Virus genome (UHGV): UHGV-0317772
Length of the DNA: 39,687 nt
Source of the DNA: a virus
Reading direction: 5' to 3' (one strand)
Shown in pieces: positions 3,926-18,985 of the stretch. A program made the position numbers and the translations under genes. The notes under the pieces were generated by a model. That model searched no databases and was not told the origin of the DNA. It saw only the letters and a program-made list of their open reading frames with translations. Every line of letters begins with the position of its first letter. Within the stretch, counting starts at the first letter, position 1.

Positions 3926-4123
3926 ATGATTTTACCAGATAAGTATTATCAAGTCATTAAATGGACAGTTTTAACAGTATTGCCAGCTGCATCTGCTTTA
4001 GTAGCCATGTTAGGGAAAGCGTATGGATGGAATGGAACAGATATGATAGTGTTGACTATCAATGCAGTAGCAACATTTTTAGGCGTTATCACTGGTGTGT
4101 CGGCTTATAATTTGAAAAAATAG
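3926..4123 (+). CDS. Holin
   Basis: 65 aa with two hydrophobic transmembrane segments and a charged C-terminus (NLKK). RBS AAGGAGGTGA. It directly precedes the endolysin. Confidence 0.6.
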   Translation: MILPDKYYQVIKWTVLTVLPAASALVAMLGKAYGWNGTDMIVLTINAVATFLGVITGVSAYNLKK

Positions 4124-4133
4124 GAGGAAACAA

Positions 4134-5153
4134 ATGAAAAAGAAAATTACTATTACTGCGATGAGCCTATTAACGGCTCTTTTTTTATTGCCAATTAATG
4201 GGTTTGCCTATACTATCAACAATGAATTTAATTTGGGCGCAAATGAAGGTAGCTCACAAATAGCAAATAATCAGTACATTTTACTGCATGAAACGGCTAA
4301 TGAAACAGCAACAGGACGCAATGAAGCGCAGTATATGCAACGTTCATGGACTAGTGCTTACACTGCTTACATTGTGGGTGATGGCGGAATTGTTTACCAA
4401 GTTGGACAACCTGGTTATGTACAGTACGGTGCTGGTTCGTATGCTAATGCCAACAGTCCTGTGCAGATTGAGTTACAACACACACATAATAAAGCAACTT
4501 TTGAAAAGAACTATAAAGCATACGTTGAATTGGCGAGAGATTCCGCTAAGAAATACGGTATTCCGCTTACATTGGACACGCCTTATAACCAACCAGGAAT
4601 CAAATCACATTTATGGGTAACACAAAACATCTGGGGCGATCATACAGATCCTTATGGTTATCTTTCTGAAATGGGCGTAAGTAAAGAAAAATTAGCATAT
4701 GATTTAGCTCATGGATTTACCGATGAAAATCCAACAACTTCTGAAAACAAGCCTGTCATTGATCCAACACGAGCTGGTGCAGCTAATCCTACACTGACAG
4801 ATGGAACAAACTACGCTCATATTGATCAGTTTGGGGAAATTGAAAATGCAAACTTGCATGTAGCTGGATGGCATATTGCTAACTATAAATACGAGTATAT
4901 TTTCATTATGGATTACAATACTGGGAAAGAATTAGCTAGAGTAAAAGCTGATGGAATTTATAGACCGGATGTAAATCAAGCGTATGGGACATCTGGAAAT
5001 GTTGGCTATCATGTATCTTTCAATATGCGTAATTTTCCTAGTAAGAAAGTCTATGTAATGATGCGGGCAACGAATGATCCAGAGGGAAACACTAAAGGCG
5101 GTGCGCAAGATTTCCATGACAAACGTTGGTATTTAAATATTCCTAAACGATAA
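4134..5153 (+). CDS. Endolysin (N-acetylmuramoyl-L-alanine amidase-like) with N-terminal signal peptide
   Basis: 339 aa with RBS AGGAGGAAACAAATG. The N-terminus MKKKITITAMSLLTALFLLPINGFA is signal-peptide-like. A catalytic N-terminal half is followed by a putative cell-wall-binding C-terminal half, and this is the last gene of the lysis cassette. Confidence 0.55.
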   Translation: MKKKITITAMSLLTALFLLPINGFAYTINNEFNLGANEGSSQIANNQYILLHETANETATGRNEAQYMQRSWTSAYTAYIVGDGGIVYQVGQPGYVQYGAGSYANANSPVQIELQHTHNKATFEKNYKAYVELARDSAKKYGIPLTLDTPYNQPGIKSHLWVTQNIWGDHTDPYGYLSEMGVSKEKLAYDLAHGFTDENPTTSENKPVIDPTRAGAANPTLTDGTNYAHIDQFGEIENANLHVAGWHIANYKYEYIFIMDYNTGKELARVKADGIYRPDVNQAYGTSGNVGYHVSFNMRNFPSKKVYVMMRATNDPEGNTKGGAQDFHDKRWYLNIPKR

Positions 5154-5157
5154 AAAT

Positions 5158-5176
5158 AGCTCCTCGTTGAGGAGCA
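5158..5176 (+). terminator. Weak hairpin after the endolysin stop
   Basis: GCTCCTC-gttg-GAGGAGC stem-loop with no clear downstream T tract. Confidence 0.3.
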
Positions 5177-5342
5177 GTACATAACTATATTGACAACTAT
5201 AAAAATTATTCGATAAAATAGTGATGTTATCGCATATCTTCACTATCACCCATAAATAGTCACACTCCAAGCTATGCGATAACAGGTTTGTTGCCACACA
5301 TTCTACTGGTTGATTGTTTATGGCTTTATGTGGCAACAACCA

Positions 5343-5416
5343 GTACCCTTAGCTCAGTTGGTCAGAGCAGACGGCTCATAACCGTCCGGTCGTAGGTTCG
5401 AGTCCTACAGGGTACA
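5343..5416 (+). tRNA. tRNA-Met (anticodon CAT; elongator type, possibly tRNA-Ile2 if lysidinylated)
   Basis: Hand-folded cloverleaf. Acceptor GTACCCT/AGGGTAC, D-arm GCTC-AGTTGGTCA-GAGC, anticodon stem GACGG/CCGTC with loop CTCATAA, variable loop CGGTC, T-arm GTAGG-TTCGAGT-CCTAC. No CCA is encoded. Confidence 0.85.
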
Positions 5417-5492
5417 TTAACGTAGCCATTTGAATCGTTCTGTGTTAGAATTTTTTTGAAGAGTATTATACAAGCTAAAGCTTTTCTTCATT

Positions 5493-5516
5493 GCCACTCA
5501 AATGAGTGGCTTTTTT
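5493..5516 (+). terminator. Rho-independent terminator
   Basis: GCCACTC-aaat-GAGTGGC followed by TTTTTT. Confidence 0.6.
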
Positions 5517-5927
5517 ATGTATCCTTTTATGGATTAATGAAAGGATGTTTCACATAGTTATACTTCTGTATATTTGAAAAGTTTTACTTTGATTTTTAAA
5601 TAGAAAGACATTTGGGTTAAATTGTGAGATAATAATAAAGAAGAGTTTAAAGCGCACCCCAAACCACTTCCCCATAAGTGTGTTACGCTTTAAACTCTTT
5701 TATATTTGAAGCCATTAAAAAGCATACCATATTTTTGAAAAAAAGTGAGAAAAAAGGCTTACAATTGGAGTGGTAGTTAATTAGTGACTTATTTTTGATT
5801 TTATAGCACTGATACTATAAAATATAGATATCATCATATTACACAATCTTAATACTAACTTAAAAAATATCTCCTTTCACAAGTATGGTGATAAAATTCG
5901 TTCCGGGCTACCTTTTTAGGTAGCCTA

Positions 5928-6018
5928 CTTTAATCTTTATACCTTTCTGGATCAACGAAAGTATACTTTATATAGTCATAACGCCGATGATCGCTACGTG
6001 CGTCCGGCACGTCAGTCA
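5928..6018. repeat. Direct repeat copy 1 (76 bp perfect core 5943-6018 plus about 15 bp imperfect extension)
   Basis: Identical to 9422-9497, with a sharp boundary at 6018. On the minus strand it encodes the last 29 codons of the gene at 9409-9714. Confidence 0.8.
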
Positions 6019-6092
6019 TGAATCGGCTACACTAGACTAGACAGAAAAAATAAGGTGTGTAGAATAATAAAAAACACACTGGAGGATTTTTC

Positions 6093-6383
6093 ATGTCAAG
6101 ACGTCAACGAAGAACCTATTCAAAAGAATTCAAACAACAAATCGTCGATCTCTATCTCGCTGGTAAGCCTCGCGCAGAAATTATTCGAGAGTATGAGCTT
6201 ACGCCTTCTTCTTTCGATAAATGGATGAAGCAAGCACAATCAACGGGCTCATTCAAAGAAAGAGACAACTTAACACCAGAACAAGCAGAATTGATCGCAC
6301 TAAGAAAGAAAAATAAGCAACTCGAAATGGAGAATGATATTTTAAAGCAAGCGGCGCTGATATTCGGACGAAAAGACAAGTAA
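6093..6383 (+). CDS. IS3-family transposase OrfA (HTH with leucine zipper)
   Basis: 96 aa with a C-terminal heptad (LIALRKKNKQLEMENDILKQ). The slippery heptamer T_TTA_AAG at 6341-6347 lies near the 3' end. Confidence 0.75.
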   Translation: MSRRQRRTYSKEFKQQIVDLYLAGKPRAEIIREYELTPSSFDKWMKQAQSTGSFKERDNLTPEQAELIALRKKNKQLEMENDILKQAALIFGRKDK

Positions 6384-6418
6384 TTGATGCCAACAAGCAT
6401 AAATATTCCATATCAGCG

Positions 6419-7255
6419 ATGTGCAAAATTCTAAATATTTCTCGTCAAACCTACTATTATCAAGCGAAACCGATCGAAAATGAGTCCGACTTAGAAGAGA
6501 TCGTTCAGGAAGAGTTTATTCGAAACCGAAAGGCTTACGGTACCCGAAAATTGAAGAAGTGTTTAGCAAAGCGTGGGCTTCAACTCAGTCGGCGCCGAAT
6601 CGGTCGAATCATGAAACGCCGCGGATTGACATCTACCTATACGATCGCTCATTTTAAAGGGCAACGAACAGCTTGTAATGAAGCGAAAACAGCGAATGTA
6701 TTAGATCGGACCTTTACACAAGAACAGCCATTGGAAGCCATCGTTACGGATCTTACTTATGTTCGCGTGGGGAAAAAGTGGCATTATATCTGCTTAATAC
6801 TTGATTTGTTTAATCGAGAAATTATTGGTTATTCCTGTGGTGAGAAGAAAGATGCCTCATTGGTAAAAGAAGCCTTTGGACGGATACCGTATTCTTTAAC
6901 AGACGTCAAGCTTTTTCATACAGACCGGGGAAAGGAATTTGATAACCAAACCATTCATGAGATTCTGAATGGTTTTGGAATTACTCGTTCATTGAGTAGG
7001 AAGGGTTGTCCGTATGATAATGCCGTTGTGGAATCAACCTATAAATCTGTCAAAGTAGAATTCGTGCATCAATACCAATTTGAGACACTGGCACAGCTAC
7101 GTCTAGAATTGTTTGATTATGTGCATTGGTGGAACTATCTACGCTTACATGGCACGTTGGCGTATGAAACACCGATCCAAATTCGACAACAGAGATTGGC
7201 GAAGCGAATCCTTGATAATGAGCGCGGATCTGATACCTCTGGAGAGGCAGCGTAA
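6419..7255 (+). CDS. IS3-family transposase OrfB (DDE integrase core), expressed as OrfAB by -1 frameshift
   Basis: DDE/rve-type core (HTDRGKEF, YDNAVVES). The -1 frame is open from the slippery site at 6347 through 6419 with no stop. Confidence 0.75.
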   Translation: MCKILNISRQTYYYQAKPIENESDLEEIVQEEFIRNRKAYGTRKLKKCLAKRGLQLSRRRIGRIMKRRGLTSTYTIAHFKGQRTACNEAKTANVLDRTFTQEQPLEAIVTDLTYVRVGKKWHYICLILDLFNREIIGYSCGEKKDASLVKEAFGRIPYSLTDVKLFHTDRGKEFDNQTIHEILNGFGITRSLSRKGCPYDNAVVESTYKSVKVEFVHQYQFETLAQLRLELFDYVHWWNYLRLHGTLAYETPIQIRQQRLAKRILDNERGSDTSGEAA

Positions 7256-7339
7256 TTGAATGATTGTGCTTCTGCCGGAGAAAATCAGATCCGAGGATGC
7301 TCATTGTCAAGGGCAATCGTAGCCATAACACCGCAGCAT

Positions 7340-7843
7340 TCACAACACCTTATAATTTTTGTCAAAAAAAGTGTTGCCATTCCACTTTTTTAAATATGCG
7401 TTCTCTGCTCTTAAACGAATAACTTCTTCTTCAAGAGACTCATCTTTAAGTTTTTTAGGAATGTTTAGCTTGGAATTCATACTAATTTTTCTGCCCCTTT
7501 TTTGGCTCTCAAGTGAAGAAGCACCGCCTTCTTCATATTGCTCTATCCATTTACTTAGAGTTCTATTTGAACCGATATTAAATTTTTTAGCAGTTTCTTG
7601 GATAGAAAGACCATTTGTTTCCATATATTCTATAACATCAAGTTTAAATTTTGTAGTGTAGCTTTTGCCACCTCCAACCAAGCCTTCCCAACCATGATAG
7701 TTATAAATCCTTACCCAATGTCTAACCAGTGTACGATTTATTTGATATTTATGTGCAAGATATTTGTAGCCGCCTTCGTTATTTAAATAGTCTGAAACTA
7801 CTTTTTTCTTAAAAACAAATGTATATTTCCGCAAAAAAAGCAC
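7340..7843 (-). CDS. IS3-family OrfA (HTH transposase N-terminal protein) of the truncated IS
   Basis: 167 aa with HTH motifs and a C-terminal zipper (EEEVIRLRAENAYLKK). Confidence 0.65.
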   Translation of the reverse strand: MLFLRKYTFVFKKKVVSDYLNNEGGYKYLAHKYQINRTLVRHWVRIYNYHGWEGLVGGGKSYTTKFKLDVIEYMETNGLSIQETAKKFNIGSNRTLSKWIEQYEEGGASSLESQKRGRKISMNSKLNIPKKLKDESLEEEVIRLRAENAYLKKWNGNTFFDKNYKVL

Positions 7844-7895
7844 CCCTTTTAATTAGATTTCTAGTCTAACTTTTGGGGTGCACATCATTTTTGAG
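7352..7895 (-). mobile_element. Truncated IS3-family (IS150-group-like) element: left end and OrfA only
   Basis: Read on the minus strand, the left-end IR TGATGTGCACCCCAAAAG at about 7876-7893 resembles the IS150 IRL. OrfB and the right end are missing, and the complete IS3 element abuts its OrfA stop. Confidence 0.55.
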
Positions 7896-7904
7896 GGGAA
7901 GTAC

Positions 7905-7956
7905 ATATAGTTGTTGATATAGTTGCTAATATTGTTAGCTAATTTGTTAGTAAAAC
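7905..7956 (+). promoter_or_regulatory. Array of four imperfect 12-13 bp direct repeats (ATAGTTGNTAAT-like)
   Basis: The repeats are atagttgttgat, atagttgctaat, attgttagctaat and ttgttagtaaaac in tandem. A second pair, ATATGCTTACAAA, lies at 8032 and 8056. Confidence 0.4.
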
Positions 7957-8085
7957 TGTATACGAATTTAGATAGTAAAAAAACAGTTTGTTCCTTATAT
8001 AGAGGCACTTTTACTACTGATTAAATGTCAGATATGCTTACAAATATACTTATAAATATGCTTACAAAATTAGCTAATATTTCCG

Positions 8086-8115
8086 TTGACAAAGCTTTGT
8101 TACTATTGTTAAACT
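8086..8115 (+). promoter_or_regulatory. Putative sigma-A promoter for the cargo operon
   Basis: TTGACA (8086-8091), an 18 bp spacer, then extended -10 TGtTAAACT. Confidence 0.4.
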
Positions 8116-8177
8116 AAATTGACTAGCAAAAGTGAAACATAAATTTATTAAATAAATGTAAAAATTAGGAGAAATCA

Positions 8178-8585
8178 ATGTCTTATAGAGTACAATTAAT
8201 AATTTCAGAAGATGTAGAAAGTCAGCAATTTGGCACTAATGTTATTAATAAAGTAATTAATCCAGCTCTTTCTATTAATGCGCCTTTAATTCCTACTGCT
8301 TTATCATTTTCTGTAACAGCTGTGGTGTCTGAGATAGAGGATACAGAAAAGATAAAAATAGTAGAAATTGAAGTTTTAAACAAGAATGAAAAACAAATTT
8401 TTTCTACGGGTGAAGTATCGGTAAGCTTGCCTCCTCAAGTTAACGATATAAACTTTAATATAAACGCCAGAAATGTCTTGGTTGAAGAAGCAGGAGAGCA
8501 TTATGCTGTTGTTAAATTTAATGGAACTGAGATTGGAAGGCAAATCTTTGATATCAAGGTCAACAAACCAGTGGAAAAAAATTAA
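8178..8585 (+). CDS. Hypothetical protein (cargo gene A, 135 aa, beta-rich)
   Basis: Strong RBS AGGAGAAATCAATG. It is the first gene of a three-gene operon and I recognise no family. Confidence 0.55.
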   Translation: MSYRVQLIISEDVESQQFGTNVINKVINPALSINAPLIPTALSFSVTAVVSEIEDTEKIKIVEIEVLNKNEKQIFSTGEVSVSLPPQVNDINFNINARNVLVEEAGEHYAVVKFNGTEIGRQIFDIKVNKPVEKN

Positions 8586-8598
8586 GGAGACGATACGG

Positions 8599-9000
8599 AT
8601 GCTTGATATAGTACCATCAAATACACATCGGAGTGGTAGCTTAATAAATTTTGCTGCGATTTTTGCTTGCGCATCGGTAATTCTAGCATCTCCAGTTGTT
8701 GTGGATGCAAGTTCTACTCCGAAAACTAAAAATGATAATCAACTTGTAATTACTACAAAAAATGAGATTAACACAATTTCAAGTAATGATGGCAAAATTT
8801 TTGATGTGATAAATACGGTTTTAAAAAGAAAAGCTGAAATCAATATAAAATATGATGAAGATTTAAACTTGTATTTCTTTGTTATCAAAACAACATCTGA
8901 ATTGTTTTCCTCAGATTACGATGTTTTGGATACTCTCGATAATGTATTATCTGACTATAAATATATGGGGAAATCTGTAGTAGCAACTTTGGGGGAATAA
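8599..9000 (+). CDS. Hypothetical secreted/membrane-anchored protein (cargo gene B, 133 aa)
   Basis: RBS AAGGAGACGATACGGATG. The N-terminal hydrophobic segment SLINFAAIFACASVILASPVVVDA is signal-peptide-like. The start is chosen inside the longer listed ORF. Confidence 0.5.
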   Translation: MLDIVPSNTHRSGSLINFAAIFACASVILASPVVVDASSTPKTKNDNQLVITTKNEINTISSNDGKIFDVINTVLKRKAEINIKYDEDLNLYFFVIKTTSELFSSDYDVLDTLDNVLSDYKYMGKSVVATLGE

Positions 9001-9001
9001 A

Positions 9002-9373
9002 ATGTTTGACTTTAATGAATATTTATCTATTTCCAAACAAATTGAATCAGATGATAAATATAATTCTAAAGAATCTTATAGAAGAACTGCTGTTTCAAGA
9101 GCATACTACAGTGCTTTTAAAAAATCTGATGAGTATTTGAAAGAAAATTATGATATTATTTATAATGGAAGTAGCGGAAAAGGAAGCCACCAAACCGTTT
9201 GGAATTTGTTTTCAACAGTTAAGGAATTGAATACCTTAGGAATACATAATAGTGGGTATAGAATGTTAGAGAAAAGAAAATGTGCTGACTATATTCCTAA
9301 TGAAACCATTACGAAAACAGATATGGCGCTGATGAATCGAGAAGCAGAAAAAATAATAAACAAACTCACCTAA
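9002..9373 (+). CDS. Hypothetical protein (cargo gene C, 123 aa), weakly HEPN-like
   Basis: Translationally coupled, with TAAAATG overlapping the gene B stop. The motifs SRAYYSAF and RMLEKRKCADY are reminiscent of HEPN helices, but the canonical Rx4-6H motif is not clear. Confidence 0.5.
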   Translation: MFDFNEYLSISKQIESDDKYNSKESYRRTAVSRAYYSAFKKSDEYLKENYDIIYNGSSGKGSHQTVWNLFSTVKELNTLGIHNSGYRMLEKRKCADYIPNETITKTDMALMNREAEKIINKLT

Positions 9374-9406
9374 TGAATTTCAAGCGAGTTTGTTTGTTAT
9401 TTTTTT

Positions 9407-9497
9407 ATTTAATCTTTGTATCTTTCTGGATCAACGAAAGTATACTTTATATAGTCATAACGCCGATGATCGCTACGTGCGTCCGGCACGTCAGTCA
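9407..9497. repeat. Direct repeat copy 2
   Basis: 76/76 identity with 5943-6018, plus an imperfect upstream extension. Confidence 0.8.
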
Positions 9498-9714
9498 CGA
9501 TATCAAACAAAAAGTATACACCCTTCTTCATTCTAGTTTTCGCAGCAGGAATTTTGAAATAGTTCTTATTAGAATAGTAGAGATTGATTAATAAGCTATC
9601 TTCGATTGCTAAAAAGAAAACTTCTGAATTCCATACTTTATAAAAGTCTTTGATAAATCTATTTGAAGGATCGAATTTAAACCATAATTGTGTCTCATTA
9701 AAAAGCATAACCAT
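9409..9714 (-). CDS. Hypothetical protein; its C-terminal 29 aa are encoded by the direct repeat
   Basis: 101 aa ORF, second gene of a minus-strand two-gene unit. Confidence 0.4.
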   Translation of the reverse strand: MVMLFNETQLWFKFDPSNRFIKDFYKVWNSEVFFLAIEDSLLINLYYSNKNYFKIPAAKTRMKKGVYFLFDIVTDVPDARSDHRRYDYIKYTFVDPERYKD

Positions 9715-9722
9715 TACTCCAA

Positions 9723-9944
9723 TCAGTTTTTAAACTTAGTTTCTACCTCTAATATATATCGAGTTTTTATTTTGCCTTCAGAGAATACCGTTTCTTTTTT
9801 TGCAGTTACAGGTTGTTTATTTTCGGAAAAAGCTAATATAGCTAAAATTGAAACATCCATCTGGAATTTATCTTTTTCGTTGCTTTGTTCATAAAAATCT
9901 GCATATTCATCACTGATATTTTTTCTAATAAATTCTTCCATCAT
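9723..9944 (-). CDS. Hypothetical small acidic protein
   Basis: RBS GAGGTGA lies 5 nt before the ATG at 9944. The listed ORF would start at GTG 9953, inside the RBS. Confidence 0.4.
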   Translation of the reverse strand: MMEEFIRKNISDEYADFYEQSNEKDKFQMDVSILAILAFSENKQPVTAKKETVFSEGKIKTRYILEVETKFKN

Positions 9945-9962
9945 AAAAATCACCTCAAAACG

Positions 9963-9991
9963 ATTATACGAACTTATGTTCTGACTGTAAA
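9963..9991 (-). promoter_or_regulatory. Sigma-A promoter (TTTACA-17-TATAAT) for the minus-strand genes 9944 to 9409
   Basis: Read directly on the minus strand: the -35 is at 9986-9991 and the -10 at 9963-9968. Confidence 0.55.
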
Positions 9992-10156
9992 GCGATATTT
10001 GAGGGGCAAAAAAGGGGCAAAAAACTCTTACTAGTCCGTTCTAGCCTAATAATTTTAAGTATTATCAACGTTGTTTTTTCTTGATATAATGGGATTTTTG
10101 TCCAGTACGTACAAGCTAAAAACGTTTGTCTTGATGGGCGGTATGATGTAGTAATT

Positions 10157-10199
10157 AAGAAAGAACCCTATTTTAACAGGGTTCTTTCTTCTTTTTTTG
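10157..10199 (+). terminator. Rho-independent terminator (13 bp stem plus T tract), partly bidirectional
   Basis: AAGAAAGAACCCT-attttaac-AGGGTTCTTTCTT followed by CTTTTTTTG, with an A tract on the other side. Confidence 0.6.
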
Positions 10200-10239
10200 T
10201 TTTATTTTAAGCAAAAGGGGCAAAGAAGGGGCAAAAATA

Positions 10240-11388
10240 TCAAAGGCTATTTAGTTTATCAATTACTTGTTGTTTGGCTCTTTTTGTTACATGGTTATAA
10301 ATAGACAGAGTTGTGTTTGCATCAGAATGCCCTACACGCTCCATAATGGCTTTAAGAGGTACGCCTAATTCAGATAATAGTGAAACGTGGCTATGTCTGA
10401 ATATATGTGAGGATAGACTTTTTTCTAATTCCAACTCTTCCTCTACTTTATGGAGTATAGCGTTAAATGAGTGCAGCGCAAGCGGAGTGCCACTTGTAGA
10501 TATAAATATATATTGATCGGGATCTGTGGGTCTACCTGCAAGAATATTGTCAGCTATCACACTTTCAATCAATTCTTTTGCACGATTGGGTAATTGCACT
10601 TCACGTTGCGAATAAGTATTTTTTGGAGTTGTTTTTATAGCATTATCCATTTTCACAGATGTGTAATCTAAGGTCCCATTAATGGAAATTTTCCCATCCT
10701 CATAGTCCTTCATTTGCAAAGCTAGCAATTCCCCATATCTCAAACCAGTTAAATATAGAAACTCAGCTATTATGCCGTGTAGTTTTCTGCGAGGATTGGA
10801 GTATAGCTGTTTCAGTATTTGATCAATTTCTTCTTTCTCCAGATATTTTTTATTCATAGAAAGCCTTCTTTTTTCTTCTTCCACTTTTTTAGGATGGATT
10901 TTAACTGCTAGCGCAGGGTTTCTTTGAATGTATTTTCTATCGATTGCATAGTTTAGCATAACAGATAGAGTTGTTTTTGTTTGTTTTGTGTAGTTCAGTG
11001 AGAGGTCACCAAACGTATACATATCTTCAATTATCTTATTAATGAGTGTCTCATCAATGTTTCTAACGATCGTATCATCGCTTATGTGCTTAGAAACATG
11101 TTTCATCATCATTGGAACCTTCAAATAGCTAGTACGTTTAACATGCTGCTTATAATATTCATACCATTCTTTATACAGCTCACCAAAAGTGATATCTGAT
11201 TTATTGTAATCTTCGAGTGCTTCTTTAATTTTTTTATCTAGAATTTTCTGAGCTTTTTTCCACGCTTGTGGTGAATTACTTGTAAGTGTTGTAGATTTTT
11301 TCCGTGTTTTTTCTGTATAAGGATCTACATATCTTTCAATAAACTTGAATTGGCCATCTTTGGTTTGTTCAACCCACACTTTTAACAT
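10240..11388 (-). CDS. int: Tyrosine recombinase / phage integrase
   Basis: 382 aa. The C-terminal catalytic signature is HIFRHSHVSLL...VGHSDANTTLSIYNHV (R..HxxR..Y), with an N-terminal SAM-like domain. Confidence 0.9.
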   Translation of the reverse strand: MLKVWVEQTKDGQFKFIERYVDPYTEKTRKKSTTLTSNSPQAWKKAQKILDKKIKEALEDYNKSDITFGELYKEWYEYYKQHVKRTSYLKVPMMMKHVSKHISDDTIVRNIDETLINKIIEDMYTFGDLSLNYTKQTKTTLSVMLNYAIDRKYIQRNPALAVKIHPKKVEEEKRRLSMNKKYLEKEEIDQILKQLYSNPRRKLHGIIAEFLYLTGLRYGELLALQMKDYEDGKISINGTLDYTSVKMDNAIKTTPKNTYSQREVQLPNRAKELIESVIADNILAGRPTDPDQYIFISTSGTPLALHSFNAILHKVEEELELEKSLSSHIFRHSHVSLLSELGVPLKAIMERVGHSDANTTLSIYNHVTKRAKQQVIDKLNSL

Positions 11389-11489
11389 CTCCTATCATTT
11401 GCTATAATAGGCATAACAAATAGACCTATATAGGTTTGTTTTCTAAAAGCACGCTCTTACTCTGGACGGTGGGGCGTGTTTTTTATTTA

Positions 11490-12074
11490 TTATACAGTTG
11501 CTTTAAAAATAGCTGCTTTTTCAAATGATACTAAAGGAGAGAAGTGGATTTCTATTTCTCCCTTTTGGTTTAACGTGAAATGAGCAGTTACATCCATTTG
11601 TTTTCCTGGAGCAACAGATCCCATTGTATTTTCGTTGGCATATGTCTCTGATTTTTTGTCATCTGGTCCATATACTTCCACATCTGTACCTACAGGGATA
11701 TCTGAATCGCCATCATTTTTTACGGTATAAGTAATTTTTACTACTTGTGCAGGTTGGTTTTCTTCAAATTGATTTCTTTCATCAGTTAGTTCTACACTAT
11801 TTAGTGTATATTCAGCATCACCAACTTTTACAGTGTCACCAATCTTATAGAAGGTATCGCTTTTTTCTTCTTTAGAAGATGAAGCAGAGGTTGAAGATTT
11901 AGTTACTTTTTCGCCACCATTATCACTTGCTTTATTACTATCTGATCCACCATTTAAAGCAGAACCAATAATTATAATTAAAATTACTGCTAATACCCAA
12001 AACCATACTTTTTTGTAAAAAGGTTTACTAACTTTATACATTTTTCCGTCTTGACCCATAACTTTTTTTGCCAT
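11490..12074 (-). CDS. Membrane-anchored DUF4352-like protein (lysogeny-module accessory, possible superinfection exclusion)
   Basis: N-terminal transmembrane segment WFWVLAVILIIIIGSAL, a Ser/Thr-rich linker and a beta-rich C-terminal domain. It sits between int and the repressor pair. Confidence 0.5.
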   Translation of the reverse strand: MAKKVMGQDGKMYKVSKPFYKKVWFWVLAVILIIIIGSALNGGSDSNKASDNGGEKVTKSSTSASSSKEEKSDTFYKIGDTVKVGDAEYTLNSVELTDERNQFEENQPAQVVKITYTVKNDGDSDIPVGTDVEVYGPDDKKSETYANENTMGSVAPGKQMDVTAHFTLNQKGEIEIHFSPLVSFEKAAIFKATV

Positions 12075-18235: not shown

Positions 18236-18985
18236 ATGACAGAACATCGAAGTTATTATGCGATTATACCAGCCAACGTAAGGTACGACAAAAGACTTAA
18301 ACCAAATACTAAGTTGTTATACGGAGAGATAACGGCCTTGTGTAATGAAAGAGGCTTTTGTTGGGCAGGCAATGAGTACTTTGCAGATTTATATGGTGTG
18401 AATAAAGAGACCATATCGCGATGGGTAAGTGATTTGATTAAGTTTGGATACTTGAATCGGGAAATCATTTACAAAGAGGGTACCAATCAAATAATCAATA
18501 GGTACCTACGAATTAATCAATACCCTATTGACGAAAAACGCAATACCCCTATTGACGAAAAAGTCAAAGATAATAATACATCTATTAATAATACATTTAA
18601 TAATACAAAAGAATATATAAGAGAGTTACCGCCTTCGAAAAAATCGAAGGCTAAGCCCGTCCGTCATAAATACGGAGAGTATAAAAATGTTCTTTTGTCA
18701 GATGAGCAGATGGAGAAACTCAAAACAGAATTCCCTAATGATTACCAAGAGCGAATCGAACGACTGTCAGAGTATTGTGAATCATCTGGTAAGACTTATA
18801 AAAACTATTTGGCAACTATTCGAAGTTGGGCAAGGAAAGAAAAAAGTGAACCTAAGAACGCAAGCAGTGGATACAAGCGCACAGGAAGACGAGAGAAGCT
18901 TCCTGAATGGGCAATCGACCAAGAAGCCTATCTCAAGAAAAAAGCGCTAGAACGAGCTAATAGACAATCAAAAGCACCATTCTAA
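18236..18985 (+). CDS. Replisome organiser / replication initiation protein (DnaD-like N-terminal domain)
   Basis: The N-terminus YYAIIPANVRYDKRLKPNTKLLYGEITALCNERGFCWAGNEYFADLYGV matches the phage replisome-organiser N-terminal family. An internal 19-20 bp direct repeat lies at 18523-18565. Confidence 0.65.
   Translation: MTEHRSYYAIIPANVRYDKRLKPNTKLLYGEITALCNERGFCWAGNEYFADLYGVNKETISRWVSDLIKFGYLNREIIYKEGTNQIINRYLRINQYPIDEKRNTPIDEKVKDNNTSINNTFNNTKEYIRELPPSKKSKAKPVRHKYGEYKNVLLSDEQMEKLKTEFPNDYQERIERLSEYCESSGKTYKNYLATIRSWARKEKSEPKNASSGYKRTGRREKLPEWAIDQEAYLKKKALERANRQSKAPF

Follow-up and report, generated by a model that had tools for sequence, protein, structure and literature searches.

A long direct repeat around insertion sequences and a conserved three-gene cargo in an Enterococcus faecium phage: probable scar of recombination between two alleles of an accessory slot

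The genome UHGV-0317772 (39,687 nucleotides, analysed at its full length and called "the window" below) is that of a temperate Enterococcus faecium phage. Between its lysin and integrase genes, at positions 5,928 to 9,497, a long direct repeat encloses two insertion sequences (ISs) and an operon of three small genes, referred to here as the cargo. This arrangement raises two questions: does the repeat delimit a mobile island that brought the genes in, as an initial annotation made from the sequence alone had proposed, and what might the genes do? A comparison with sibling phages indicates that the repeat-bounded structure very probably arose by IS-mediated joining of two alleles of one accessory slot, and that the repeat is a structural scar of this event. 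The cargo was already resident in the slot and was not delivered to it by an island. It is an old, conserved unit, for which a toxin-antitoxin or defence function is suggested here as a tentative assignment.

The window exhibits the gene order of a circularly permuted temperate phage (tail, holin, lysin, slot, integrase, lysogeny module, replication, packaging). Its nearest relative, Enterococcus faecium phage 4995_1, is 96% identical and has the same arrangement. For the comparison of the slot, window positions 4100 to 11400 were aligned by BLAST to about 35 loci of the slot, taken from phage records, chromosomes of E. faecium and IMG/VR, which are cited by number where necessary (L002, L003 and so on). 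Homology to integrated prophages stops at about position 10023 in several genomes, with different chromosomal flanks in each, and the G+C content of the segment (0.26-0.35) is lower than that of its surroundings (0.37-0.42). Together with the presence or absence of the cargo among siblings, these observations agree with the earlier view of a moron slot, that is, a site for accessory genes, between the lysin and the attachment site and integrase.

A repeat search over positions 4000 to 12000 returned one outstanding direct repeat, 5929-6021 against 9408-9500 (93 nt, 3 mismatches). The 76-nt block first reported as perfect (5943-6018 and 9422-9497) is identical on direct check, and the homology extends leftward for another 14 nt with two mismatches (5939 and 5942) before ending abruptly at 5929/9408. 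As position 6019 is the first base of an IS, ISEfa8, the following match of "GA" to 6021 is coincidental, and the true homology of the repeat is 90 nt (5929-6018). A chance origin of a perfect 76-mer pair in 40 kb is excluded by calculation (about 1e9 position pairs x 4^-76). The repeat had been said to encode the 3' end of a minus-strand gene. This gene does exist, and it belongs to the DUF5960 family (Table 1). The repeat is bounded on the left by the DUF5960 stop codon and on the right by the end of an IS.

The origin of the two repeat copies becomes apparent from the allelic states of the slot. In phage vB_ElaS_B1578 (L002) and in a record labelled Listeria phage LM 4-11-1 (L003), a tRNA with CAT anticodon behind the lysin terminator is followed by a spacer and one unbroken DUF5960 gene, with no cargo. 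Window positions 5343-6024 and 9408-9693 fall on one continuous stretch of these two genomes, and their overlap is the repeat. This state (allele A) is the empty site with a single repeat copy that had been predicted to exist in related phages. Allele B, found in L011 and L071, has the lysin terminator hairpin (intact in L071, CCCCTCATTTTTGAGGGG) and then the window sequence from 7885/7892 onward, comprising the leader, the three genes and DUF5960. It lacks the tRNA, the ISs and repeat copy 1, and in L071 it continues through the integrase of the window. In L063 and L068, the lysin terminator of this allele houses an entire ISEnfa3 of 1416 bp within its loop (allele B::ISEnfa3). Allele C, present in the window, in 4995_1 and in most sampled prophages, has an A-type left part reaching 90 nt into DUF5960, followed by ISEfa8, a stub of ISEnfa3, the right half of the B-type terminator, the cargo and an intact DUF5960. 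Finally, L008 and L009 (allele D) correspond to type C minus positions 5780-7625, and this deletion derivative shows that neither repeat copy 1 nor the ISs are required. Relative to A, the window gains the ISs, the cargo and the repeat; relative to B, it gains the A-type region and the ISs. The window retains the right half of the type-B terminator (TTTTTGAGGGGAAGTACATA) directly after the ISEnfa3 end, which marks the entry of ISEnfa3 into an IS-free ancestor, and L063 and L068 share this right flank with the window. Several prophages of this kind occur per E. faecium genome, and one genome holds three copies of the cargo.

Both ISs of the segment belong to the IS3 family. The ends of ISEfa8 were set by alignment of independent copies at 6019 (TGAATCGG...) and 7384 (...CCATTCCA; longer end ...GCCATTCCA), and its terminal arms of 41 nt are 71% complementary. 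The element is 99.7-99.9% identical to independent copies on large plasmids (99.7-100% over the full length for annotated copies overall), and positions 5990-7420 are 100% identical to circular E. faecium records of 38-39 kb in PLSDB that hold the whole arrangement. Its orfA matches HTH_Tnp_1 (E-value = 2.2e-10) and its orfB matches rve, rve_2, rve_3 and the NCBIfam model transpos_IS3 (248 bits); the two lie in adjacent frames, and a homologue is annotated with a programmed frameshift. The complete IS3-family element recognised initially is therefore ISEfa8. The second element had been described as a truncated IS150-like element with an OrfA stop that abuts the first IS. It is indeed truncated: 503 of the 1416 bp of ISEnfa3 are present, with one end and most of orfA and no orfB, at 100% identity to plasmid copies of ISEnfa3, and the complete element is seen in L063. 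The position of the stop was in error, as the open reading frame (ORF) at 7340-7843 is the ISEnfa3 orfA continuing 45 nt into the end of ISEfa8.

The flanks of ISEfa8 are unrelated to each other, with ...GTCA of DUF5960 on the left and CTTT... of the ISEnfa3 interior on the right, and there is no target-site duplication. Elements of the IS3 family generate target duplications of 3-4 bp, not of 90 bp. Because the duplication is missing and the flanks are unrelated, we take this copy of ISEfa8 for a recombination joint and not for a simple insertion; the identity of ISEfa8 as an IS is unquestioned by this. The ISEnfa3 copies of L063 and L068 likewise exhibit no target duplication, and they share one right flank but have different left flanks (CCCCTCGA versus CCCCTCGTTG), which argues that IS copies have repeatedly acted as crossover points in this slot. 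The ISEnfa3 copy on a plasmid (L021) is bordered by a 4-bp TTTA duplication. Three further ISs, one of the IS256 family and two of the ISL3 family, have entered the same 3.5 kb in sibling prophages, each with an 8-bp target duplication (L060, at window positions 7895-7902; L065, 7615-7622; L009, 9400-9407). Counting ISEfa8 and ISEnfa3, at least five independent IS insertions have thus occurred in the 3.5-kb slot.

Two side observations concern the behaviour of these elements. On plasmid L019 (NZ_CP091578.1, about 1660-1680) two ISEfa8 copies stand head to tail with a 3-bp spacer (...TTCCA ATT TGAATCGG...). Such a configuration is the junction expected of a tandem dimer or circle intermediate of IS3-family elements, and it suggests that ISEfa8 is currently active. 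ISEnfa3 occupies the loop of a hairpin in the phages and likewise on plasmid pE1_230 (L021), a pattern that points to terminator loops as preferred targets.

Could the segment nevertheless be a self-contained mobile island that entered an existing site, with the long repeat as the signature of its insertion (by target duplication or site-specific recombination) and the ISs as the carriers of the cargo? The empty-site phages with one repeat copy would fit such an island, as would the intact and probably active ISEfa8 at one of its edges. We consider this very unlikely. A duplication of 90 bp is far from the 3-4 bp of the IS3 family, for which the TTTA of L021 is an example, and ISEfa8 is present in one copy only and has no duplication. 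The edges of the repeat are the stop codon of DUF5960 and the end of an IS, and no recombinase gene lies inside the segment. Moreover, the same cargo and DUF5960 are found behind the lysin terminator, free of ISs and of the repeat, in L011 and L071, and with only a complete ISEnfa3 in L063 and L068. The proposal that the segment is an island delivered by IS activity or by recombination at the repeat does not hold against these loci. The repeat is the 3' end of DUF5960, contributed once by each parent, and is a product neither of transposition nor of attachment.

We propose instead the following course of events. First, the type-B lysin terminator would have received ISEnfa3 in its loop, an intermediate that is observed in L063 and L068. 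One ISEfa8 would then have landed in that ISEnfa3, and another at 90 nt from the 3' end of DUF5960 in a type-A phage. Homologous recombination between the two ISEfa8 copies, or an equivalent IS-mediated rearrangement giving the same product, would have fused the A-type left part with the B-type right part. Repeat copy 1, the small ORF of 29 amino acids (aa) within it and the ISEnfa3 stub would be the debris of this recombination. The left edge of the repeat is then the DUF5960 stop codon, where the homology between A and B ends, and its right edge the point of IS insertion. For IS-mediated joining as such our confidence is high; for the specific route through two ISEfa8 copies, with its reconstructed order of events, we hold the balance to be about even. 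Two negative results weigh against that route. Neither the precursor or reciprocal junction between the ISEfa8 right end and the 5' part of DUF5960 (CGATATCAAAC) nor that between the ISEnfa3 interior (...GGTTTCTAACTT) and the ISEfa8 left end was found in IMG/VR, the JGI metagenomes or PLSDB (the PLSDB search used a chimeric 120-nt query), and for this reason the exact route remains a reconstruction.

A circle could lead to the same structure. Two ISEfa8 copies flanking a unit made of ISEfa8, the ISEnfa3 stub, the cargo and the DUF5960 3' end in a type-B phage would recombine with each other and release a circle, which would enter a type-A phage by homologous recombination in the 90-nt DUF5960 end. 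This scheme yields exactly the observed product and repeat boundaries, and the ISEfa8 tandem with its 3-bp spacer on plasmid L019 points to an ISEfa8 active in these genomes. It demands the same number of IS insertions as direct joining plus a crossing-over within only 90 nt, and a type-B allele with ISEfa8 in DUF5960 was not seen among the approximately 35 loci. Although the present data fit both schemes alike, we regard the circle as an improbable alternative to direct joining of the two alleles.

Direct IS-mediated joining has parallels in rearrangements where ISs serve as portable homology and hybrid ISs lack a target duplication. Common features are a complete IS with non-matching flanks, one IS nested in and truncating another, and siblings that exhibit the pre-insertion and single-IS states. 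The present case differs in its by-product, a 90-nt duplication of a gene end that mimics the boundary of an island, and in that the reciprocal products were not recovered.

The debris of the event includes an apparent small gene. Base 6019, contributed by ISEfa8, converts a GTG codon of the intact DUF5960 gene to the ATG of the orphan 29-aa ORF. What had been described as a single base change at the repeat edge is thus no point mutation, the T of this ATG being the terminal T of ISEfa8. No Shine-Dalgarno sequence was found upstream of the ATG. That this ORF encodes a functional peptide was rejected, since it lacks a ribosome-binding site, owes its ATG to an artefact of the IS junction, and is deleted in the L008/L009 allele. 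As for the DUF5960 gene itself, it borders the slot on the right throughout, and in most cases an ORF of 73-76 aa comes next; the truncation of one of its copies by ISEfa8 is tolerated. In L014 (2534-2833) it stands among genes for SRAP and a Y-family polymerase.

Table 1. Features of the slot and its neighbourhood in the window (strand left empty where none applies).
Feature	Position	Strand	Basis or remark
tRNA, CAT anticodon	5343-5416	+	ARAGORN; Rfam RF00005, 71 bits; part of A-type slot allele
Repeat copy 1: orphan DUF5960 3' end (last 29 codons), cut by ISEfa8	5929-6018	-	continuous with rest of gene in L002, L003
ISEfa8 (IS3 family), complete, 1366 bp, TG...CA ends	6019-7384	+	orfA 6093-6383, orfB 6419-7255
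ISEnfa3 (IS3 family) 5' fragment, 503/1416 bp	7385-7887	-	terminal inverted repeat and most of orfA; cut by ISEfa8
Right half of B-type lysin terminator hairpin	7888-7907	+	marks ISEnfa3 entry into IS-free ancestor
Imperfect 12-bp tandem array, about 3-4 copies	7905-7950		TRF and repeat search; possibly operator
Three tandem copies of ATATGCTTACAA, partly inverted relative to first array	8032-8068		tandem-repeat and repeat searches
Promoter-like TTGACA-18-TAAACT, extended -10 TG	8086-8115	+	consensus match only
Gene 1, 135-aa DUF6941 protein, no hydrophobic segment	8178-8585	+	PF22091, 30.9 bits against cutoff 27; phrog_5881, E=2.4e-32
Gene 2, 133-aa protein, N-terminal hydrophobic segment (about 15-36), C-terminal domain 62-133	8599-9000	+	no family
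Gene 3, 123-aa predicted HEPN-fold protein, AF0298/PF05168 type	9002-9373	+	R92-x3-D96-Y97 in place of Rx4-6H; H63 invariant
Hairpin, 20-nt arms 95% complementary, T-runs on both sides	9348-9405		inverted-repeat search; terminator scan
Intact DUF5960 gene, 101 codons	9409-9714	-	Pfam PF19385, E=3.6e-18; phrog_16386; 3' end 9408-9497 is repeat copy 2
76-aa ORF upstream of DUF5960	9723-9953	-	called as gene in several sibling prophages; no family match

The cargo consists of three co-directional genes (Table 1), and it had been asked whether these occur together elsewhere as a unit. They do, and their order (DUF6941, gene 2-like, HEPN) is kept as the identity of the gene 3 product falls from 100% to about 30%: 61-64% in L014-L018, 50% in L072, 39-42% in L022-L026 and 30% in L047/L049. 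The last of these, from a high-G+C metagenome-assembled genome (MAG) of Bacillota, still combines DUF6941 (Pfam E-value = 2e-7) with HEPN and a partner gene. A spacer of 1 nt lies between genes 2 and 3 in the window; in L022, L026 and L072 the two genes overlap by 4-8 nt. In the index of an assembly collection, 10,232 blocks contain the identical gene 3 protein, with up to three copies per genome. The triad stands directly behind the prophage endolysin in five lineages, and the lysins that precede it are unrelated (Amidase_2, Amidase_2 with SH3, CHAP with CW_7, and a 332-aa lysin). In L022-L024 it is flanked by the lysin on one side and a second holin-like gene on the other. The tRNA(CAT) of the window also precedes the triad in L014-L018 (positions 1-70 of these loci), about 120 bp upstream; tRNA and cargo are neighbours there, but come from different parental alleles in the window. 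The triad is thus a real unit, and an old one. That the three ORFs are decaying, hitch-hiking fragments with no function might be suspected from the lack of experimentally characterised relatives and from the IS debris that fills the region. Against the intact ORFs, the order and start/stop coupling kept from about 30% to 100% identity in many genomes, and the high-confidence folds predicted for the domains of genes 2 and 3, this idea is scarcely credible. A copy of gene 3 with 100% identity in Stenotrophomonas sp. 278 (L030, NZ_RHPP01000334.1), on a 509-bp contig with a coverage of about 1, is almost certainly a contamination of that assembly by E. faecium.

The initial annotation had placed none of the three proteins in a known family. 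Gene 1 does belong to one, as its match to the Pfam family DUF6941 is above the cutoff. Orthologues of gene 1 are present in all triads, and those of L025, L026, L047 and L072 also match DUF6941. A first gene of this family is confined to Bacillota (3/21 loci). Gene 1 has no match in PADLOC-DB v2.

Gene 2 matched no family in Pfam, NCBIfam or PHROGs. Its structural model is confident for residues 62-133 only (predicted local distance difference test score, pLDDT, about 90), where it displays an alpha-beta-beta-alpha-alpha-beta order, and a Foldseek search of this model against the BFVD viral structures returned nothing at E<=0.001. The hydrophobic N-terminus is strong in enterococci (Kyte-Doolittle 19-residue maximum 2.0-2.1), weaker and signal-like in other Bacillota, and absent at the gene 2 position in L027, L029 and L047. 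Against PADLOC-DB v2, gene 2 gave an isolated, weak match to HamC2 (DUF3223; E-value = 2.5e-4, 18.9 bits), which does not assign the cargo to a known defence system. We rejected gene 2 as a lipoprotein, as the residues before its cysteine do not fit a lipobox. Sequence searches of the three cargo proteins and of the broad partner profile described below against the chains of the PDB revealed nothing significant.

Gene 3 had been called weakly HEPN-like, and this can be put more firmly. Its model (pLDDT 86.6) has the predicted four-helix HEPN fold, and relatives of the protein match PF05168 weakly. An exhaustive HMMER search recovered 836 representative relatives. In 30 of these, down to 26% identity, residues R28, R33, Y35, Y36, H63, R92, A95, D96 and Y97 are invariant; 20 of the 30 match PF05168 weakly (best E-value = 3.1e-6) and 19 match the PADLOC model HEPN_IX. 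The AF0298 family was described as having the motif histidine replaced by aspartate, with a second strongly conserved histidine in the N-terminal direction and a possible alternative active site, and AbiV likewise has no motif histidine (Anantharaman et al. 2013, PMC3710099). Gene 3 fits the AF0298 description, since its invariant H63 lies upstream of a motif from which the histidine is missing.

Gene 3 resembles the AF0298-type proteins of the HEPN-T/PF05168 group (UPF0332, PDB 2hsb), which as a rule form HEPN-MNT toxin-antitoxin modules with a minimal nucleotidyltransferase (MNT; PADLOC candidate PDC-M05), in several respects: its length of about 125 aa, the retained arginine, the replacement of histidine by aspartate and the second conserved histidine upstream. 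As in HEPN-MNT modules, HEPN is the downstream gene of a tightly coupled pair, and relatives of gene 3 weakly match PF05168, HEPN_IX and PDC-M05B. The upstream partner is, in contrast, not an MNT, as it has no NTP_transf_2 match and no conserved GS or DxD motif. Further differences are the additional DUF6941 gene in Bacillota, the hydrophobic N-terminus of the partner in enterococci, and the score of gene 3 below curated thresholds. RnlA-RnlB/LsoA-LsoB and AbiV share with the cargo a HEPN effector beside a small, unrelated, non-MNT partner on a mobile element or prophage. They exhibit no sequence relationship to it; gene 3 is a minimal single-domain HEPN, and its partner lies upstream and not downstream.

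The association with an upstream partner extends far beyond the prophages. Distant HEPN loci were examined in 29 cases from representative genomes (Armatimonadota, Acidobacteriota, Planctomycetota, Deltaproteobacteria, Methanothrix and Bacillota), and a tightly adjacent upstream ORF was present in 27/27 of those with a callable HEPN ORF. Twenty-six of these partners form one phmmer cluster with the pattern helix-FG / strand-DPE / strand / helix-FDxxWW. The enterococcal gene 2 may be equated with this broad family by position, the two being bridged by L047/L049, where DUF6941 and a broad-family partner occur together; homology is not claimed. An iterative hidden Markov model, used to look for a link between the two, recruited no further members. 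Archaeal HEPN relatives in Methanothrix MAGs (L045, L051, L053) have the same kind of upstream partner. At one Methanothrix locus the first gene is DUF2299 (E-value = 9e-20) and not DUF6941, so the first gene of the operon varies by lineage.

What could be the role of this cargo? A toxin-antitoxin or defence function is our preferred reading, put forward with a confidence somewhat below even. Genes 2 and 3 have the build of a generic toxin-antitoxin-like operon: they are small and tightly coupled, and the pair is kept across contexts. Gene 3 would probably be an RNase using an alternative R92/H63 site, or at least an RNA-binding effector. Gene 2, translationally coupled to it, would be the cognate partner, acting as neutraliser and/or trigger, and in enterococci it may be membrane-tethered or exported. 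Gene 1 could be a lineage-specific accessory or sensor, and the module would be expressed in lysogens as a system of the toxin-antitoxin or abortive-infection type. In other phages this slot is occupied by genes annotated as RelE/ParE-XRE-SecB or as SecB-like chaperones, which fits the slot as a home for toxin-antitoxin-like cargo.

Several results weigh against this functional reading. The canonical Rx4-6H motif is absent from gene 3, which has R92-K-C-A-D96-Y97 with no histidine. Gene 3 itself has no Pfam match at E<=1, falls below every curated HEPN threshold, and reaches only E=0.006 with its best PADLOC model, HEPN_IX. Gene 2 was rejected as an MNT or active nucleotidyltransferase, as it lacks a conserved G[SG] or DxD motif and an NTP_transf_2 match. 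The partner family fares no better: 25 of its proteins had no match in Pfam, NCBIfam or PADLOC, including NTP_transf_2 and PDC-M05A, and have no invariant G or D, and in hhalign comparisons the motifs of the enterococcal gene 2 are in register with those of the family at a non-significant P of 0.02-0.06. If the N-terminus of gene 2 were a cleaved signal peptide, its folded domain would be extracellular, away from a cytoplasmic HEPN protein. Full-text literature searches for DUF5960 or DUF6941 gave no matches, and no experiment or paper addressing these genes was found; searches for ISEfa8 with prophage, and for E. faecium with prophage and HEPN, returned nothing on this locus.

The strong hydrophobic N-terminus of the enterococcal gene 2, with weaker signal-like segments in other Bacillota, the repeated position of the triad beside holin and lysin genes (in L022-L024 between the lysin and the second holin-like gene), and the absence of the canonical catalytic histidine would also be compatible with an envelope-acting superinfection-exclusion or lysis-accessory set, in which gene 2 is an exported effector and HEPN a non-catalytic regulator binding RNA or nucleotides. 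We consider such a set, the main competing reading, unlikely. In L027, L029 and L047 the partner lacks the hydrophobic segment and is still coupled to HEPN, nine HEPN residues are invariant, among them the R/H pair proposed as an alternative active site, and the differing lysin types speak against a specific partnership with a lysin.

Returning to the toxin-antitoxin or defence reading, a bolder form of it is that the gene 2/gene 3 pair represents an undescribed, widespread class of HEPN toxin-antitoxin or abortive-infection systems, with an AF0298-type HEPN RNase that uses the alternative R/H site and a non-MNT partner of alpha-beta-beta-alpha-alpha-beta order, to which prophages of Bacillota have added a DUF6941 sensor and a membrane tether for the protection of lysogens. 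The 836 representative clusters of HEPN relatives across Bacteria and Archaea, most of them with an upstream partner, are in keeping with it, and the class would then be present in much of the hospital population of E. faecium; we nonetheless rate this extension as doubtful. Taken as a whole, the account that combines the IS-mediated origin of the arrangement with this view of the cargo is the best explanation at hand and, in our judgement, somewhat more probable than its alternatives together.

The cargo has the attributes of a prophage moron: it is a cassette at a module boundary, with signals of its own (as consensus matches only), and it varies among close relatives. It shares with morons found behind the endolysin in Bacillota the position between lysin and attP, a promoter-like site and a terminator hairpin, the low G+C and the presence or absence among near-identical phages. 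It differs in content, as it is a HEPN triad and not a virulence factor or a known exclusion gene. The TTGACA promoter initially placed upstream of the operon is present as a consensus match, and the hairpin between the convergent cargo operon and DUF5960 is probably a bidirectional terminator; on these consensus motifs, the cargo may be an autonomous unit. The tandem arrays upstream of the operon had been called iterons. The arrays are real, and only five regions of the window contain tandem arrays, these two included. They are, however, absent upstream of the orthologous triads (L014-L018, L026, L072), and no replication gene adjoins them. The name iterons is not justified for them; they may be operators of this lineage. 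The second array, earlier described as a pair of direct repeats (at 8032 and 8056), has three copies. A cluster of tandem repeats at 18479-18607 (periods of 22, 24, 15 and 12 bp), in or beside the ORF 18236-18985 of the replication region, is a better candidate than these arrays for an iteron-bearing origin of the phage.

Some further observations were made on the slot and the window. In L002 (PQ283533), a three-gene set that includes a SecB-like chaperone lies at 3940-5645 between lysin and tRNA, and in EH-TP1 (H6, PQ571301) this stretch carries a RelE/ParE toxin, XRE and SecB, so that cargo in the style of toxin-antitoxin-chaperone modules occupies the slot in both. The tRNA of the window is a tRNA-Met according to ARAGORN and a tRNA-Ile in GenBank OP745419, and may be a tRNA-Ile2 of the lysidine type. 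Rfam models detected this tRNA only across the window, with no riboswitch or known RNA in the leader of the cargo operon. The motif AGGGGCAAA(A/G)A occurs in 2 + 2 copies at 10002-10024 and 10216-10237, on both sides of the point where prophage homology ends (about 10023) and a short distance upstream of the gene for the integrase; the copies may be attP binding sites of the arm or core type. An inverted copy within the ISEnfa3 stub (7487-7512) is probably due to chance. Three GenBank records with other host names, OR846730 and OR848098 ("Listeria phage LM 4-11-1 / 4-14-1") and PQ554527 ("Acinetobacter phage D2SVT"), are 90-95% identical to the Enterococcus phage slot, and the match statistics of PQ554527 are those of Enterococcus phage vB_ElaS_B1578. 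Mistaken host labels, or contamination of the preparations by an induced enterococcal prophage, are the probable causes.

The locus calls for caution in the reading of similar structures. A long direct repeat around ISs and cargo genes looks like a mobile island, and is here very probably the scar of IS-driven shuffling, in which copies of an IS provide portable homology and alternative accessory cassettes are exchanged among co-resident prophages of E. faecium. Of the two findings, the cargo is the lead of greater value: an uncharacterised, strongly conserved HEPN operon present in thousands of E. faecium assemblies, in which gene 2 has no family model. It combines a HEPN module having a non-MNT, unmodelled partner with a DUF6941 accessory, and is very common among the prophages of E. 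faecium. If it acts in toxin-antitoxin or abortive-infection fashion, it bears on prophage stability and on the resistance to therapeutic phages of a priority nosocomial pathogen. The operon would also open the alternative active site that was proposed for HEPN domains of the AF0298 type to experiment.

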